From Candidatus Saccharimonadota bacterium (GTDB lineage: Bacteria; Patescibacteriota; Patescibacteriia; 2-12-FULL-60-25): a DNA stretch of 32,000 nt. Under the pieces are notes generated by a model. It made no database searches and was not told where the DNA came from. It was given only the letters and a program-made list of their open reading frames with translations. Positions 11,557-26,606 of the stretch are shown one piece after another (the stretch's first letter is position 1; the number at the start of each line of letters is the position of its first letter). The stretch lies in contig OY970357.1 of NCBI GenBank assembly GCA_963718585.1, forward strand, positions 480,001 to 512,000. The letters run 5' to 3'. Position numbers and translations under genes: made by a program.

Positions 11557-12441
11557 ATGGACCCAAAAACCGACCATCCGGACATCAGCGTGATCATCGT
11601 GAGCTGGAACGTCCGGGAGCTTCTCCGGGCCAATCTGACGCGACTCTTCTCGCTCAAGACCGATGCGAATATCGAGGTCTTTGTGGTCGACAATTATTCG
11701 CATGACGGCACGGCGTGGATGGTGCGGAAAGAATTTCCCCAGGTCCATCTCATCACGAATGCATGGGATGCAGGATTCGCCGGTCCGAACGACCAGGCGC
11801 TCCGGCTCGCGAAAGGCGACATCTGCATCTTGCTCAATCCGGACATGCTTGTCGATGAAGGCGCGTTCGAGCGCGCCGCCAAGGAGCTCATCCAAGACCG
11901 CGGTATCGGCGTGCTCGGGATCAAACTCATCGGCCAAAACGGAAAACCAGTGAGCAATGTCCGCCGCTTCCCGACCTTCGGTTCCCAACTCGCGATCCTC
12001 CTGAAACTCCAACACCTTTTTCCGAGCCTTGTCGCGCGGTACATGGCAACGGATTTCGATTATGACCGATCACAGGATGTGGATCAGGTCCGCGGATCCT
12101 TCTTCGCCTTTCGACGCGAAATGCTCGAACGCGTGGGCTATCTCGACGATGGCTATCATATCTGGTTCGAAGAAGTCGACTTTTGCAAACGGGTGAAGGC
12201 GAAAGGTTTGCGCGTCCGGTACTGCGCCGACGCACGGGCGCGTGATTACGTCGGAAAAAGTGCGTCGCAGATGTCACGATTGAGCGCTCAACGGATCTTC
12301 ACGGCGAGCATGGTCCGCTATTTCCGCAAATGGCACCCATCCTGGCAGGCGTATACCATCGCCGCTCTGAGACCCATCGCACTTGCGTCAGCCGCAGGAG
12401 CAGACGCCGTCACTTGGATGAAAAATAGGATGTTCGTATGA
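11557..12441 (+). CDS. GT2 glycosyltransferase, WbbL/rhamnosyltransferase-like (294 aa)
   Basis: ISVIIVSWN...VVDNYSHDGT...NAGFAGPNDQA...LLNPDMLVDEG...WFEEVDFCKRVKAKG. I start at internal ATG 11557. Its stop overlaps the next start in an ATGA at 12438-12441. Confidence 0.85.
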   Translation: MDPKTDHPDISVIIVSWNVRELLRANLTRLFSLKTDANIEVFVVDNYSHDGTAWMVRKEFPQVHLITNAWDAGFAGPNDQALRLAKGDICILLNPDMLVDEGAFERAAKELIQDRGIGVLGIKLIGQNGKPVSNVRRFPTFGSQLAILLKLQHLFPSLVARYMATDFDYDRSQDVDQVRGSFFAFRREMLERVGYLDDGYHIWFEEVDFCKRVKAKGLRVRYCADARARDYVGKSASQMSRLSAQRIFTASMVRYFRKWHPSWQAYTIAALRPIALASAAGADAVTWMKNRMFV

Positions 12442-14264
12442 AGGCCGCTCTCCAACTCTCCTGTTACAACGGCGGGCGGTATCTCCCCTATCTTTTCGCT
12501 TCCCTCAAACACCAGACGTTCCGCAACTGGGAATTACACGTCCTCGACAACGCCTCGGATGAGGAGAATGCAACTCTCATCCGATCCGCCGTGGAGAATG
12601 CCGGCTTCCCGATCATCCTTGATCGCGTTGATCAGAACATCGGATTCGCCGGCGCACATGACCGTCTCTTTTCTTCGCGATCTCCAGACGCAGAATACGC
12701 TGTCCTGTTGAATGATGACGCGATCCTTGAAAAAGATTTCCTCGAACGGCTGATCGCCTTTCTTGATTCGCATCCTGCGTGTGCATCTGCATCCGGGACG
12801 ATCCTCCGATGGGACTTCGACAAACGCGACGAACCGGATCAGGGGCGTACGGGCATCGTGGACTCCCTTGGCCTTGCGGTCGGATGGAATGGCTTCGTCA
12901 AAGACGTTGGCGCCGGTCTTCGTTTTTCCGAAGCGAACGCCCCACATACGCCAACAAAGATCTTCGGACCTTCCGGCTGTTTGCCCATCTATCGCGTGTC
13001 CGCTGTTCTTGCAACGAGCCCGGACGGCGCGCTCTTTGATGCCGCCTATGGCTCGTACAAAGAAGATACGGAACTTGCCTATCGTCTCCGTGCCGCTGGA
13101 TCCACATCCATGATCGTTCCAGATGCCGTCGCCTATCATCGTCGATCGTTCCGCGCCGGACAGACGAAACGGGCCGAACATCCGTATGCATACGAGTCGT
13201 TCCGCAATCACCTATGGATGGACCTCGTCCACCTTCCGATCGGTTCGCTCATGACCAACCGCTGTCTCGTCGTCCCGGCGGAATTGGCAAAGATCGCTTA
13301 TTGGAGCGTGAAACGTCCGTCATTCATCGCGCGTCTGTGGCAGGACACGTCCCGACGTTGGGACGACCTCATGCGCCGCCGCACCCATGCGGCACATCTC
13401 CGCGCTCATCGCGGTCGTCTCACTGCGCCCTACCCGAAACCCACGGCAGATATCAACATCGTCATCGTCTCGCATAATGAATTGAGCATTGAAACGCTTC
13501 GATCCGTACAGACCGCACGCGAGCGATTCCGCGGCACGACCGCACTCGTGGTCGTGGACAACGCATCGACCGAATACCGTGCGAATGAACTGATATCTTC
13601 CATCATTCCGGATGCATGGGTCCTCCTCCGCAACGGCGATCACGGATACGGCCGCTCCATGAACATGGGCGCGGACTGGGTGGACGCAAAAGCCTATTTC
13701 ATCCTCAATCCGGACACCTTGCTCGACGATCCGGAGATCCTCAACCGGCTGTGGGCGTATCTTGATTCCCACGCAGACGTCGGACTCGTGGGTCCAAAAC
13801 TGCTGAACTTCTCAGGTGAATTGCAGGACACCTGCCGCCGCTTCCCGGCCTGGTACCAGCCGCTCATCCAGCGCACCTCACTCAAGCAGACCGCGTTCGG
13901 AAAAAGATACCTTTCACATTTTCTCTTGAAAGACGCGGATCGGACACGCGACATGGATGTAGATTGGGTTCAGGGCTCGGCCATGTTCGCGCGCGGCGAC
14001 GTCTGGAAGAAGCTCGGCGGTTTCGATGATCGGTATTGGCTCTACTTCGAAGATATCGATCTTTGTCGACGGGTTTGGCATTCTGGAAAACGCGTGGTCT
14101 GCACCGTGGATACGCAACTGCGTCACGCGCACGGTCGGCAATCTGCGAAGATCCGCAACATGATCATGAATATCCTCAAGACCAAGGAGACGCGCGGTCA
14201 TCTCAACAGCTGGCGGAAATATCTCTGGAAGTGGAAATTCGTCTCACATCCCCGATCACAGTGA
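12438..14264 (+). CDS. Double-module GT2 glycosyltransferase (608 aa, two GT2 domains in tandem)
   Basis: Module 1: LSCYNGGRYLPYLFASLKHQT...VLDNASDEEN...GFAGAHD...LLNDDAILEKDF...YKEDTELAYRLRAAG. Module 2: INIVIVSHN...VVVDNASTEY...GYGRSMN...ILNPDTLLDD...YFEDIDLCRRVWHSG. Confidence 0.85.
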   Translation: MKAALQLSCYNGGRYLPYLFASLKHQTFRNWELHVLDNASDEENATLIRSAVENAGFPIILDRVDQNIGFAGAHDRLFSSRSPDAEYAVLLNDDAILEKDFLERLIAFLDSHPACASASGTILRWDFDKRDEPDQGRTGIVDSLGLAVGWNGFVKDVGAGLRFSEANAPHTPTKIFGPSGCLPIYRVSAVLATSPDGALFDAAYGSYKEDTELAYRLRAAGSTSMIVPDAVAYHRRSFRAGQTKRAEHPYAYESFRNHLWMDLVHLPIGSLMTNRCLVVPAELAKIAYWSVKRPSFIARLWQDTSRRWDDLMRRRTHAAHLRAHRGRLTAPYPKPTADINIVIVSHNELSIETLRSVQTARERFRGTTALVVVDNASTEYRANELISSIIPDAWVLLRNGDHGYGRSMNMGADWVDAKAYFILNPDTLLDDPEILNRLWAYLDSHADVGLVGPKLLNFSGELQDTCRRFPAWYQPLIQRTSLKQTAFGKRYLSHFLLKDADRTRDMDVDWVQGSAMFARGDVWKKLGGFDDRYWLYFEDIDLCRRVWHSGKRVVCTVDTQLRHAHGRQSAKIRNMIMNILKTKETRGHLNSWRKYLWKWKFVSHPRSQ

Positions 14265-14266
14265 AT

Positions 14267-15427
14267 ATGGAACTTCCCCGCGTCGCCATCATCTACCTGA
14301 CGTACAACGGCAAAGATTCGTACGAGGACATCACGCGCGTCTTCACATCACTGACCACACTCGACTATCCGCGCGACCGCGTAGAGATCATTTGCGTTGA
14401 GAATCCGTCCGCGCATGGCGCGAGCTGGCCATTCATCGAAAAAGAGTGGTACCCGCGCGTGGGCGTGGATTTTCCTGCCATTACGATCGAGAAGAACGAG
14501 AAGGATGGCGGATACTCCGGCGCGAATGATGTCGGCGCGCGCATTGCAAAGGAGCACGGGTGCGCGTATGTCTTTTTGCTCAACCAGGACACGGACATCG
14601 ATCCAAAGTTCCTCCGTGCCGCCGTGGAGCGCGCAGAATCCGACCCCAAGATCATGCTGGTCCAGTCATTGCTCCTGCTCGGACAGGACCGGAACCTGGT
14701 CAACTCGGTCGGCAACCGCTATCACTTCCTCGGCTTTGGCTATGCGGGCGGCAACGGTTGGACCGTGGATCAGGCACGGAGCTGGATCGAAACGGAACGG
14801 AAGACGAATCCGGACCTGGAAGTCCCGTACGTGAGCGGCGCCGCGGTACTCGTCCGCCTTTCCATGGTCGACCAGATCGGACTTTTTGATGCGCCGTTCT
14901 ACATGTACCACGAGGATGTGGACGCCACATTCAACGCGCGCATCCATGGATGGAAATCCGTTTTGGAACCTTCAAGCGTCGTGTATCACTACTACGCGTT
15001 CTCCAAGAGCATCAAGAAATTCTACTGGATGGAGCGGAACCGCTTCATGGTGGATCTCACGTATTACAAACTCCTCACTCTGCTCCTCATGGCTCCCGCC
15101 TTCTTCGGGGTGGAATGTGCGAGCATGCTCTTCGCGATCAAGGGTGGCTGGTGGCGCGAAAAAGGCCGTGCATGGGCTTTTTATTGGCGCCCATCGACGT
15201 GGGCGTGGGTCGCAAAGCGCCGATCCCGCGCGATGAAGGAACGCATCATCTCCGATCGGGAATTCTTGAAATGGGCGGACAGCAAGATCCTCTTTCAGGA
15301 ACAGTCACCCGGTGACAGCGACAATGCGTCGCTCAAAAAAGACGTCGGCGGCTCACTGGTCCAGCGCGTCGCCAATCCCCTTCTCACCGCGTACTGGAAA
15401 CTGATCTACACCCTGATCCGCTGGTGA
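14267..15427 (+). CDS. GT2 glycosyltransferase with C-terminal membrane segment (386 aa)
   Basis: VAIIYLTYNGKDS...ICVENPS...GGYSGANDVG...FLLNQDTDIDPKF...MYHEDVDATFNARIHG, with TM LLTLLLMAPAFFGVECASMLFAI. I start at internal ATG 14267, 2 nt after the previous stop. Confidence 0.85.
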   Translation: MELPRVAIIYLTYNGKDSYEDITRVFTSLTTLDYPRDRVEIICVENPSAHGASWPFIEKEWYPRVGVDFPAITIEKNEKDGGYSGANDVGARIAKEHGCAYVFLLNQDTDIDPKFLRAAVERAESDPKIMLVQSLLLLGQDRNLVNSVGNRYHFLGFGYAGGNGWTVDQARSWIETERKTNPDLEVPYVSGAAVLVRLSMVDQIGLFDAPFYMYHEDVDATFNARIHGWKSVLEPSSVVYHYYAFSKSIKKFYWMERNRFMVDLTYYKLLTLLLMAPAFFGVECASMLFAIKGGWWREKGRAWAFYWRPSTWAWVAKRRSRAMKERIISDREFLKWADSKILFQEQSPGDSDNASLKKDVGGSLVQRVANPLLTAYWKLIYTLIRW

Positions 15428-23071: not shown

Positions 23072-24799
23072 ATGCGCTTCGTAACAGTGATCCCAGCGAT
23101 CCGCACCATTCCAGGCGTGGAAGTGTTTGATTACCGGATCAATGAAGAAGTCGAGATCCTTCCAGGAGACATCATCCGCGTTCCGTTTCGAAAGAGGGTC
23201 GTCTCCGCGGTCGTCAGCGCCGTCACGGACCAAAGTCCGTATGCAGACAAGGCGATCCATCTCCCGGACCCTGAACCCCTTCTCCGATTTGGTCCATCAT
23301 TACCCGACCTCATTCAACAGACCGCGGAGCGATGCTTCACGTCCCGTCCGACGGTCGCGGCTGCTTGGATCCGAAACGTGCCCAAGCGGGCAAAAAAAGC
23401 TATTCCCGTCGTCTCAGAGACCCAAGGAACGATCCCGACCAAAGAGACGCGACTCCTCGCTGATCGTCTCCATGCGTCGAACGGACTCATTGAAACGGTG
23501 CGTCATGCCAAAGGGAGGACGCTGATCCTTGTTCCGTGGAAGGAACGCGCCGAAGCGATCGCGGCGGAACTTGGTTGTCCATTTCTCCACGCGGACCTTT
23601 CCAATACAGAGGCCTGGACGCGGATCTCAGAGCTGACGAACGGTCGTTCGATCTGCCTCGTTACGACACGGATCGGCGCCTGGCTCGGCAGTGTCGCGGA
23701 TACGATCCTGTTAGACGAACCGGAAAATGACGATCACAAACAGGACGAACTCACACCACGCTATGACGCACGCTGGGTCGCTGCGACCTGCGCGGTCCTC
23801 CGACCGCAGATGTCTCTTATCGCCTTTTCCACGACCCCACGGCTCCACACGTGGCCCGTCGAGCAGTCGGCACCGACGATCGAGCCACATCTCACGCTGG
23901 AACCGGATGCGCCAGGCCGGCGATCGGAGATCCCCTCTCTCACCGCACAAACGGTCGAACGGATCAGTGAGGCGATCACCGCCGATCACCGCGTGCACAT
24001 CATCCACGCCATTGCCGGCCTCCAAGCGAGATACGTTTGCCGGGACTGTGGCTGGATCGCCCCATGCCCGTCGTGTGGATTTCCCCTCAGCAGAACATCG
24101 ACCGGAGCGATCTGCAAAGCCTGTGGCAGACACGCAGACCCTCCGACGGTCTGCCCGACGTGTGGAGGTTCTGATTTCTCCGCATCTCGTCCGGGACGCG
24201 AGCGCCTGTCAGATGCATGCGCAGCGCGTTGGGGCGACCGTGTGCACGTCATCCCACCCATCGCCGTCGGCGCCACACACGTTGAACCTCAAGACCTTCT
24301 CGTGATCACCGACCTCTCACTGATCGGTGGCGCGACCGAGGACATCCGGCGCAAAGAACGCCTGATCATCGCCTGGCGGAGGATCGCCGCCATCACCGCG
24401 AATACGAAGGCGTCTTTGATCGTCCAAGGTCCCGACGCGACGGTCTCTGCCTGCAGGCCGTGGCTGTCTTCAGCGGGATTCAAGACCGAATGGGATCGTG
24501 AATCCGCAGAACGAAGCGCTTTCGGCTACCCACCTGCGGTTCGCTTGATCAAATGCCTGGTCAACGGGTCATTCGATGATGGAGACCGGCTCATTGCCGA
24601 CCTTCGTGAACAGATCCCGAACACCTGGGAGATCCGTGGCCCGTATCCGGTCGCCTTTCGTGCGGCCACGCGCGCCGCCCGCGTTGCCATCCACGTCGTC
24701 GTACCGCGTGAGACGGCCGTAACGGCCATAACCGCCGCATTGAACCCTTTTCGGGGTCGTGCCATCATAGACCTTGACCCGGTGGCTTATTTCAGCTAA
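23072..24799 (+). CDS. priA: Primosomal protein N' (PriA)-like, 575 aa, with degenerate helicase motifs
   Basis: The PriA-type N-terminus (FVTVIPAIRTIPGVEVFDYRI...ILPGDIIRVPFRKRVVSAVV) is present. So is the 4xCxxC zinc region CRDCGWIAPCPSCG...CKACG...CPTCGG. No GxGK[ST] Walker A is present, and DEPE replaces DEEH. Confidence 0.75.
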   Translation: MRFVTVIPAIRTIPGVEVFDYRINEEVEILPGDIIRVPFRKRVVSAVVSAVTDQSPYADKAIHLPDPEPLLRFGPSLPDLIQQTAERCFTSRPTVAAAWIRNVPKRAKKAIPVVSETQGTIPTKETRLLADRLHASNGLIETVRHAKGRTLILVPWKERAEAIAAELGCPFLHADLSNTEAWTRISELTNGRSICLVTTRIGAWLGSVADTILLDEPENDDHKQDELTPRYDARWVAATCAVLRPQMSLIAFSTTPRLHTWPVEQSAPTIEPHLTLEPDAPGRRSEIPSLTAQTVERISEAITADHRVHIIHAIAGLQARYVCRDCGWIAPCPSCGFPLSRTSTGAICKACGRHADPPTVCPTCGGSDFSASRPGRERLSDACAARWGDRVHVIPPIAVGATHVEPQDLLVITDLSLIGGATEDIRRKERLIIAWRRIAAITANTKASLIVQGPDATVSACRPWLSSAGFKTEWDRESAERSAFGYPPAVRLIKCLVNGSFDDGDRLIADLREQIPNTWEIRGPYPVAFRAATRAARVAIHVVVPRETAVTAITAALNPFRGRAIIDLDPVAYFS

Positions 24800-24822
24800 A
24801 TTCCGATATTCTCTAAAAAATC

Positions 24823-25308
24823 ATGGCTAAATCCCTTCCCCTCGTCACGGTCCCCACCCCGACCCTCCGCGAACGCTCCACGGAGGTGGATCTGCATGCC
24901 ATCAGCACTCCGGAATTCCAGACGTTCCTGGACGACCTGATAGAGACCATGTTCGTCGAAGACGGCGTTGGGATCGCCGCGCCGCAAGTCGGACGAAATG
25001 AACGGATCTGTATCGTCCATGAACACGGTGGTGCCAAGGTCTACATCAATCCGGAGATCGCGAAGATGTCGGAGACGACGCAGGAGAGTGAAGAGGGGTG
25101 CCTGAGCGTCCCTGGCGTCTGGGGTATGGTCACACGCGCGAAGAAAGTGACGTTCCGAGCGCTCGACCGACACGGCCGTCAGGTGGAATTTGATGCAAAG
25201 GGGTTCATGGCGACCGTGTACCAACACGAGGTCGATCACCTGGACGGGATCCTCTTCGTGGACAAGGCAACGAAGATCGTCAAAGGAGGAGGAAAGAAAA
25301 AAGTGTGA
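24823..25308 (+). CDS. def: Peptide deformylase (161 aa)
   Basis: The three canonical motifs are present: GIAAPQVG, EGCLSVPG and HEVDHLDG. Confidence 0.95.
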   Translation: MAKSLPLVTVPTPTLRERSTEVDLHAISTPEFQTFLDDLIETMFVEDGVGIAAPQVGRNERICIVHEHGGAKVYINPEIAKMSETTQESEEGCLSVPGVWGMVTRAKKVTFRALDRHGRQVEFDAKGFMATVYQHEVDHLDGILFVDKATKIVKGGGKKKV

Positions 25309-25354
25309 TGGAGCATCAGACCTTTTATCGTTCTTTCCCGCTTCTCCTCCCCGT

Positions 25355-25379
25355 CATTCCCGCGTAGGCGGGAATCCGG
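25355..25379. repeat. Left terminal inverted repeat / hairpin (attcccgc-gtag-gcgggaat)
   Basis: Perfect 8-bp stem 25356-25363 / 25368-25375. It is the inverted counterpart of 25665-25689. Confidence 0.7.
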
Positions 25380-25384
25380 CTCCC

Positions 25385-25660
25385 ATGTACTACGTATACA
25401 TTCTTTGTAACAATGCTGGTGTACGCTATATCGGGGTCACCAACGATCTCAAGCGCAGGGTGTATGAACGTATACAACGGTCCCTTGAAGGCTTTACAAA
25501 GAAATACGACATCGATCGATTGATCTCGTTTGAAGAGACGACGGATGTCACGGAAGATATCCCAAGAGAAAAAACACTAAAAAGATGGAACAGGTCATGG
25601 AAAACGAAGCTCATCAATGATACGGATCCCAAATGGATCGATCTCTATGATCAACTCTGA
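25385..25660 (+). CDS. Small GIY-YIG nuclease-superfamily protein (YhbQ/UPF0213-like), 91 aa
   Basis: MYYVYILCNNAGVRYIGVTNDLKRRVYER...REKTLKRWNRSWKTKLINDTDPKWIDLY follows the GIY...YIG...R...E...K.W.R..K..LI...NP.W.DL pattern. I start at internal ATG 25385. Confidence 0.85.
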   Translation: MYYVYILCNNAGVRYIGVTNDLKRRVYERIQRSLEGFTKKYDIDRLISFEETTDVTEDIPREKTLKRWNRSWKTKLINDTDPKWIDLYDQL

Positions 25661-26606
25661 CAAACCGGATTCCCGTTTTCACGGGAATGATACACGGCGA
25701 CGCGCCATCTTCTTCGGCACGTCGGATTTCGCCGTGCCAAGTTTGAGATCGCTTTCCGATGATCCCCGCTTCGATGTCGTTGCGGTCGTGACCCAACCGG
25801 ATCGACCGGTCGGTCGACATGCAACGATCACACCCCCGCCCGTGAAGATCGCTGCGACTGAACGGAACGGTGAGATCTTTCAACCGGAAAAACTGATGGA
25901 ACTGAAAGATCGACTCCCCGCAGCCGATGTCTTTGTCGTCGTGTCTTACGGAAAGATCCTCCCGCAGTGGCTTATCGAGCTCTCATCGCACGGGATCGTG
26001 AATGTGCACGGATCGCTTCTTCCTCGATGGCGTGGCGCTTCGCCGATCCAGGCCGCGATCGCGGCCGGTGATGAAATGACCGGTGTCACGATCATGCAGA
26101 TCGACGCGGAACTTGATCACGGACCCATCCTTGCGACCGCTGAAGAGCCTATCCGTCCTGATGATACGGGAGGATCCTTGCACGACCGTCTCGCCGAGCT
26201 TGGGGCGAAGATCCTGCCGGATACACTCGCCGGTTTTCTCGACGGAACGATCACCCCGCAAGACCAAGAGCACGATCTCGCCACCTTTTGTCGAACGTTG
26301 AAACGGGAAGGTGGGAAATTGGATACATCAAGATCCGCAGTAGAATCAGAACGCAAGATCCGCGCCTACTCGCCCTGGCCGGGGACCTATATTGAAACAG
26401 AAGGAAAACGCCTCAAGATCCTCACAGCGCGAGTCGCGAAAGACGACGCGTCGAAGTCCCCTGGCACGCTTTTCATCCGAAACGCCCTCCCCTGCCTCGC
26501 CTGCGCCGACGGAACTGTCCTTGAACTGACCATGGTCCAGCCCGAAGGGAAAAAGCAGATGAGCGGAATGGATTTTACGCGAGGGTCTTCGAATGTGACT
26601 CCTTGA
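25647..26606 (+). CDS. fmt: Methionyl-tRNA formyltransferase (319 aa from ATG 25647; ATG 25617 also in frame)
   Basis: AIFFGTSDFAVPSL...VVTQPDRPVGR...NVHGSLLPRWRGASPIQAAI...MQIDAELDHGPIL. The only canonical in-frame starts upstream of the conserved IFFGT lie inside the GIY-YIG ORF. Confidence 0.9.
   Translation: MINSDKPDSRFHGNDTRRRAIFFGTSDFAVPSLRSLSDDPRFDVVAVVTQPDRPVGRHATITPPPVKIAATERNGEIFQPEKLMELKDRLPAADVFVVVSYGKILPQWLIELSSHGIVNVHGSLLPRWRGASPIQAAIAAGDEMTGVTIMQIDAELDHGPILATAEEPIRPDDTGGSLHDRLAELGAKILPDTLAGFLDGTITPQDQEHDLATFCRTLKREGGKLDTSRSAVESERKIRAYSPWPGTYIETEGKRLKILTARVAKDDASKSPGTLFIRNALPCLACADGTVLELTMVQPEGKKQMSGMDFTRGSSNVTP
25665..25689. repeat. Right terminal inverted repeat / hairpin (attcccgt-tttc-acgggaat)
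   Basis: Perfect 8-bp stem 25669-25676 / 25681-25688. It is the inverted counterpart of 25355-25379 and lies inside the fmt reading frame. Confidence 0.7.

Follow-up and report, generated by a model that had tools for sequence, protein, structure and literature searches.

In all likelihood, the element that separates def from fmt in this 1.08-Mb CPR-like genome is a cassette of the Ssn type, with the NTS-ssnA-NTS layout, inserted at the def-fmt junction. It consists of a gene for a small single-domain GIY-YIG nuclease bracketed by two inverted hairpins (Table 1), and lies in the 32,000-nt stretch of DNA analysed here, hereafter referred to as the window. An earlier sequence-only reading of the window had implied that such an element was new; however, the layout is that of the published Ssn/NTS system, and the left arm is nearly identical to its repeat. 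This kind of element has therefore been published already, and the window copy is a somewhat decayed member of it.

In the published system, SsnA is a 94-aa single-domain GIY-YIG protein that binds the NTS hairpin in ssDNA only, cleaving the DNA a few nucleotides before it (Chenal et al., Nat Commun 2025;16:2388, PMC11893778). The pairing of Ssn and NTS has been characterised in Neisseria and Wolbachia, and mutation of Y6, Y17 and E64 abolishes SsnA activity (PMC11893778). Across phyla, at least one flanking hairpin is found for 71% of the Ssn homologues, and hairpins on both sides for 42%; the NTS-ssnA-NTS layout has been likened to an insertion sequence, with mobility raised as a hypothesis only (PMC11893778).

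Table 1. Features of the def-fmt region, with positions in the window.
Feature	Position	Strand	Basis
priA	23072-24799	+	Upstream of def in the 32,000-nt window
def (peptide deformylase), upstream host gene of the split pair	24823..25308	+	PF01327, E 7.6e-49; priA-def-fmt synteny
Spacer of 43 nt, def stop to left hairpin	25309..25351	+	Comparison of def-fmt junctions
Left NTS/SRM hairpin	25352..25379	+ (forward)	27/28 to NTS consensus CGTCATTCCCGCGMAVGCGGGAATCYRG; SRM pattern match; fold -17 kcal/mol
Probable ssn-type gene, 91-aa single-domain GIY-YIG nuclease	25385..25660	+	Pfam; homologues at most 60% identical; GC 42.4%
Right NTS-like hairpin, inverted	25665..25692	-	24/28 to NTS consensus, 22/28 to left arm; fold
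fmt (methionyl-tRNA formyltransferase)	25647..26606	+	PF00551, PF02911; frame and start codons

Hairpin arms and nuclease gene

The sequence-only reading had described 25-bp arms that are inverted copies of each other, each folding into a perfect 8-bp hairpin, and both observations were reproduced. Segments 25355-25379 and 25665-25689 are reverse complements at 21 of 25 positions, and a repeat search returned 26 nt with 85% complementarity. Folding of 46-nt pieces gave an 8-bp stem and a 4-nt loop in both arms, at -17.0 and -12.3 kcal/mol. The pattern ATTCCCG-N3-10-CGGGAAT has exactly two matches in the window, against none in 100 shuffles. In agreement with the same reading, no second copy of either arm was found in the window by pattern search, and no direct repeat that could be a target-site duplication was seen next to the arms.

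The left hairpin is composed of a CGTC tag, a stem formed by ATTCCCGC and GCGGGAAT, a GTAG loop and a CCGG tail. With its flanks it reads CGTCATTCCCGCGTAGGCGGGAATCCGG, which agrees with the NTS consensus of Neisseria in 27 of its 28 positions, and it fits the degenerate SRM search pattern of Chenal et al. 2025 (PMC11893778). The right hairpin, which reads TATCATTCCCGTGAAAACGGGAATCCGG on the minus strand, has the CCGG tail, a stem formed by ATTCCCGT and ACGGGAAT, and a loop, with one compensatory stem change (C-G to T-A) relative to the left arm. Its tag is TATC where CGTC is expected, and it therefore fails the SRM pattern. This hairpin sits within the only open fmt frame, and its stem type, GTCATTCCCGTGAAAACGGGAATC, is the main repeat of one relative (G012). 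A role of the hairpins as terminators or as a riboswitch was also considered and rejected, as a T-run is missing, neither arm is called as a terminator and no Rfam family matches.

The 91-aa ORF between the arms was correctly recognised by the sequence-only reading as a GIY-YIG gene splitting def and fmt, both of which are confirmed by Pfam. It matches PF01541 (GIY-YIG) over residues 1-73 (E 2.6e-10, 40.9 bits for a cut-off of 22.6). Its homologues are 91-105 aa long, and the closest among 5.8 billion proteins is 59-60% identical, so the donor of the cassette cannot be named; a recent transfer from an identifiable donor was rejected for the same reason. NCBIfam has no model for an Ssn-type protein. 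Sequence and profile searches of the PDB found no solved Ssn structure, the only sequence matches being the UPF0213 proteins 1ZG2 and 1YWL (profile E 2.5e-6 and 1.5e-4).

Residues Y5, Y15 and E62, invariant in the family alignment, are present in the window protein; they are the counterparts of Y6, Y17 and E64 of SsnA, as matched by motif position and not by direct alignment to the N. meningitidis protein. Several other positions depart from the family. Position 29 is Arg, where His is found in 119/119 database homologues and in all 38 other copies in relatives; positions 81 and 58 are both Asp, where 118/119 database homologues have Asn and Ala, respectively; and position 48 is Ser, where most homologues have Tyr. 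His29, located four residues past an invariant Arg, and Asn81 presumably correspond to two residues lining the active site of I-TevI, His31 and Asn90. In addition, the window copy sits on a long terminal branch: at 0.91 substitutions per site it ranks 7th in length among 155, for which the median is 0.30.

The H29R, N81D and A58D replacements, the long branch and the change of the right tag from CGTC to TATC are signs from which I infer a loss of activity, and the window copy is probably old and immobilised, and possibly catalytically weakened. The ORF is intact, and since Y5, Y15 and E62 are kept, the protein may still be active.

The G+C counts made by hand for the first 60 nt, 25/60 for the GIY-YIG ORF and 40/60 for def, were exact on recounting. 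The statistical comparison of GC and codon usage that the sequence-only reading had proposed also shows the ORF to be atypical. Its GC content is 42.4%, against a genome mean of 57.9%, so that it belongs to the 0.85% of all 276-nt segments with the least GC, and its GC3 of 0.50 lies at the 2nd percentile of 655 long ORFs, for which the mean is 0.67. The Lys/Tyr/Ile/Asn-rich composition of the family may be a partial cause of this low GC. The second ssn paralogue of the genome has a GC content of 44%.

The def-fmt junction and the start of fmt

The def and fmt genes are housekeeping genes that are usually adjacent and co-transcribed. The order priA-def-fmt is syntenic across the taxonomic family, and in the window priA, def, the 91-aa ORF and fmt follow each other in that order on the plus strand. 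Both genes lie on the fetched locus in 26 relatives; in 25 of these, the def-fmt gap ranges from -14 (an overlap) to about +100 nt, and in the same-genus genome, where no ssn gene was found, the junction is simply TGAaATG. No ssn gene was found in the fmt loci of 29 relatives, and hence none at def-fmt. Since the junction is tight and free of ssn in relatives, the 380-nt filling seen in the window is derived. The comparison thus identifies the cassette as an insertion into the def-fmt junction, which is what the sequence-only reading had proposed. That reading had suggested looking for empty def-fmt sites, and these were found; it had also recognised that the same gene, at the same place and with native composition in all relatives, would speak against an insertion, but the relatives do not have the gene there.

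The spacer that precedes the left hairpin has no counterpart in the relatives with a tight junction, and is therefore probably inserted DNA or a later addition; no promoter-like or terminator-like sites are predicted in it. The empty junctions of the relatives do not have a target sequence in common. No close relative was seen to have the same site in both states, filled and empty.

The one exception to the tight junction is G015 (locus L035, G015:C5:12514-16437), where a 909-nt def-fmt spacer contains three SRM-like hairpins of stem type CATCCCGAGCG. This spacer also contains an antisense ORF of about 219 aa, unrelated to ssn and with no assigned function, and represents an independent filling. 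Short hairpins are also found between def and fmt in a few more relatives. Together with the G015 spacer, these indicate that the junction has been struck by such repeats more than once.

The insertion has consequences for the start of fmt, the conserved part of which begins near 25704 (AIFFGT). Upstream of this motif, the only in-frame ATG, GTG or TTG codons are ATG 25647 and ATG 25617, both within the 3' end of the nuclease gene. A start at either would make fmt longer by about 15-27 residues than in the relatives, where it starts 2-6 codons ahead of the FFGT motif. From ATG 25647, the start presumably used, fmt would begin MINSDKPDSRFHGNDTRRRA and would be translated across the right hairpin. 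The cassette would in this way provide the sole in-frame canonical start of fmt, and its loss would therefore be costly.

Another ATG, at position 25687 at the end of the right arm, is offset from the fmt frame by one base; a 1-nt deletion or an assembly error is a possible cause of this offset. I also considered whether cassettes end exactly at the start codon of the next gene, but for this family the idea is unsupported: the 25687 ATG does not share the fmt frame, and a long ORF begins at the terminal ATGAC in only 11 of 89 homologous cassettes, against 29% for control ATGs.

No promoter-like site, terminator-like site or Rfam family was found inside the cassette, suggesting that def, ssn and fmt probably form a single transcript. 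A Shine-Dalgarno sequence is recognisable neither before the def ATG (24800-24825) nor before that of the nuclease gene, and the choice of start codon in this genome therefore cannot be judged from ribosome-binding sites.

Hairpins and cassettes in relatives and in the same genome

The association between hairpin and gene was examined at the best 80 homologue loci (46-57% identity) in a one-genome-per-species scan. These come from many groups, among them Alphaproteobacteria, uncultured Rickettsiaceae, Bacteroidales, Ignavibacteriota, Clostridia, Dehalococcoidia, Elusimicrobia and several Patescibacteria; no Neisseria is present in these 80. For the 67 loci with long enough flanks, a GTC-tagged hairpin (stem of at least 7 bp) is present within 150 nt upstream in 41, and a convergent one within 150 nt downstream in 35. 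The same counts at 550-700 nt are 2 and 1, and for the wrong orientation 13 and 15. Convergent tagged hairpins are thus enriched about 20-fold beside the homologues relative to distant flanks. Within the window's taxonomic family, most of the 20 homologue loci listed are bracketed likewise, with stems that vary by locus. Across 41 related genomes, the number of NTS-type hairpins per genome varies from 0 to 66 (0 for a reversed control pattern), and an ssn match is present in 17 of the 19 genomes that have such hairpins. In 13 of 40 relatives, ssn was not found.

Two relatives each contain a recent pair of paralogous cassettes. In G018, two cassettes separated by 72 kb share 88% identity across 444 nt in otherwise unrelated surroundings, and inverted repeats of 46-47 nt, 89-91% complementary, mark the limits of the similarity. 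These copies (L068 and L069, G018:C4:84000-87300 and 11700-15000), of about 445 bp each, are the clearest case of duplication of a unit. In G027, which belongs to another family, two cassettes on different contigs (L051, G027:C29:2000-6000, and L009, G027:C2) are 95% identical over 364 nt, with a hairpin marking the limit of the similarity on one side. One of them directly follows fmt, so that here too an ssn cassette adjoins fmt, though at a different site. These comparisons support the view that hairpin-gene-hairpin units have been copied whole in relatives, though the mechanism is not given thereby.

In the window's own genome, the core pattern matches 6 sites, against 0 for a control pattern, and the tagged pattern 5 against 0, which are small numbers. 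The SRM pattern gives 13 matches with a stem, against 0-4 in random genomes. The cassette hairpin is found without a GIY-YIG gene at four further intergenic sites, at least three of which are convergent pairs. The sequence-only reading had regarded hairpins occurring genome-wide independently of GIY-YIG genes as evidence against a cassette, and these four sites are such occurrences. In one gene-less pair, at 115994-116062, a hairpin of the left arm type and one of the right arm type of the window cassette are separated by only 13 nt. Intergenic, gene-less convergent pairs of GTC-tagged hairpins were recorded at 115994-116062, 411994-412064, 467241-467300, 1014014-1014080 and 366228-366297 (all on G000:C1). 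It is possible that the gene-less pairs descend from the cassette. Simple internal deletion was rejected as their origin, as the 13-nt spacer 116022-116034 matches nothing inside the cassette.

The sequence-only reading had also proposed a search for multiple copies of the cassette, but no near-identical second copy is present in the genome. A second ssn paralogue (G000:C1:679966-680238) is 52% identical, keeps all the family-invariant residues and has different hairpins. The hairpin repeat in which it is embedded is about 121 bp long, and is present as three tandem units before the gene and a single unit after it. Together with the window cassette, this paralogue means that one 1.08-Mb genome holds two nuclease/hairpin pairs.

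Kinship and origin of the cassette

Architecture, size and motif, all read from sequence, point to membership of the Ssn family (PMC11893778). As in that family, the protein has a single GIY-YIG domain (91 aa here, about 90-100 aa in the family) and counterparts of Y6, Y17 and E64, the gene is flanked 5' and 3' by hairpins with a CGTC tag and a CYRG tail (the right tag being TATC here), and gene-less copies of the repeat are dispersed in intergenic DNA. Unlike the family, the window copy is devoid of the invariant His29 and Asn81, and its right tag is degenerate. It also differs from published Ssn loci in splitting def-fmt and carrying the only in-frame canonical start of fmt, and from Neisseria in its CPR-like host, where only about five NTS-type hairpins are found and not hundreds.

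CGTC-tagged REPs, including dRS3 of Neisseria and RPE-4/6 of Rickettsia, have been catalogued, with no transposase known for them (Di Nocera, De Gregorio, Rocco, BMC Genomics 2013;14:522, PMC3733652). The hairpins described here are similar to these repeats, being short CGTC-tagged stem-loops, mostly dimers and intergenic. The core of the window repeat, ATTCCC-N8-GGGAAT, is that of dRS3, with the left arm reading CGTC, then ATTCCCGC GTAG GCGGGAAT. No dedicated enzyme gene was found beside the catalogued repeats (PMC3733652), whereas here, as in the Ssn system (PMC11893778), a GIY-YIG gene lies within the convergent dimer.

The cassette also resembles REP/REPIN-RAYT and IS200/IS605 elements, in which an enzyme gene is likewise flanked by hairpins recognised in ssDNA, gene-less doublets occur and there is no target-site duplication. 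Membership of these groups was nonetheless rejected, as the only ORF encodes a GIY-YIG nuclease and not an HUH Y1 tyrosine transposase, and the tag is CGTC and not GTAG. In addition, strand transfer has never been shown for Ssn, unlike for these elements.

A scheme for the window cassette can be proposed on this basis. Two convergent hairpin repeats of the CGTC-tagged NTS/SRM type enclose the single-domain GIY-YIG nuclease gene. If the protein acts like the characterised SsnA enzymes, it would recognise the hairpin in ssDNA alone and cleave a few nucleotides ahead of the CGTC tag, and the convergent hairpins would yield one cleavable site per strand, just outside the cassette. I infer from this both ssDNA cleavage by the window protein and the way in which the unit moves. 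The cassette would have entered an otherwise tight def-fmt junction, where def, ssn and fmt are probably transcribed together today.

The filled and empty def-fmt sites, together with the two pairs of paralogues ending at or near inverted repeats, suggest a broader reading, which I put forward tentatively. NTS-ssn-NTS units may be miniature transposons of about 340-450 bp, with a GIY-YIG nuclease as their sole gene, that can be trapped by the dependence of a host gene, here fmt. The data favour, but do not prove, that such cassettes move as units. The sequence-only reading had described a compact selfish or mobile cassette. This description holds insofar as a nuclease gene lies between hairpin inverted repeats and homologous units are duplicated in relatives (G018, G027), but nothing indicates present mobility for the window copy, where H29R, N81D and the mutated tag are signs of decay.

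It is unlikely that the cassette is an active autonomous mini-transposon, with the GIY-YIG protein as transposase, the arms as ends and the gene-less pairs as non-autonomous derivatives. Such an element would have the insertion-sequence-like layout remarked on by Chenal et al. (PMC11893778), would account for the def-fmt site being occupied here and vacant in relatives, for the ends of the G018 and G027 duplications at or near inverted repeats and for the gene-less pair with both arm types, and would match the existence of CGTC-tagged repeats with no known transposase (PMC3733652). However, the cassette is a single copy in its genome, the other ssn being 52% identical and having different hairpins, and its best homologue anywhere is 60% identical. 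Its invariant residues are replaced, its right tag is mutated and target-site duplication is absent, while for Ssn only cleavage has been shown and strand-transfer activity is unreported (PMC11893778).

A resident host gene, which might for example restrict incoming ssDNA, with the hairpins as dispersed target or regulatory sites and its position reached by recombination between repeats, is very unlikely. This would parallel N. meningitidis, where SsnA limits transformation by NTS-bearing DNA, and the REP-RAYT transposases, to which the same paper draws an analogy and which are thought to have been domesticated by their hosts (PMC11893778). The ORF is intact, and expression is expected from a gene co-oriented in an essential operon with no terminator. 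Against this, the gene was not found in the same-genus genome, nor ssn in 13 of 40 relatives or in any of 29 fmt loci, and the composition is atypical. Moreover, the invariant residues lost from the window copy are kept in the second paralogue, which argues against strong selection on the window copy.

Finally, it is barely credible that generic REP-like terminators or mRNA-stabilising stem-loops happen to flank a free-standing homing endonuclease targeting the def-fmt spacer: the hairpin does occur at four gene-less intergenic sites, and homing endonucleases such as I-TevI do have a GIY-YIG domain as catalytic module, but the 20-fold enrichment largely refutes this, neither hairpin is followed by a T-run or called as a terminator, 91 residues leave no room for a DNA-binding domain, and the junctions of relatives have no common target sequence. 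The cassette does share with enzymes of the I-TevI type the GIY-YIG fold and an insertion present in one genome and absent in relatives. Unlike these, it is framed by inverted hairpins, lacks both a linker and a DNA-binding domain, and lies in neither an intron nor a phage; the Ssn family cuts ssDNA, whereas the I-TevI type cuts duplex homing sites. The link to homing endonucleases made by the sequence-only reading was thus abandoned, given the single domain, the hairpin arms and the lack of a target common to the empty sites.

Read as an inserted Ssn-type cassette, the element leaves the understanding of the Ssn/NTS system unchanged, and its added value is incremental. It extends the Ssn/NTS pairing to an ultra-small genome of CPR-like type, whose hairpin hardly differs from that of Neisseria. 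Comparison with relatives also lends support to a hypothesis raised for the published system, that the gene can be inserted and duplicated together with its hairpin pair (PMC11893778). It also suggests a possible route to fixation, in which the essential fmt gene lost its own start and would now be read out of the cassette.
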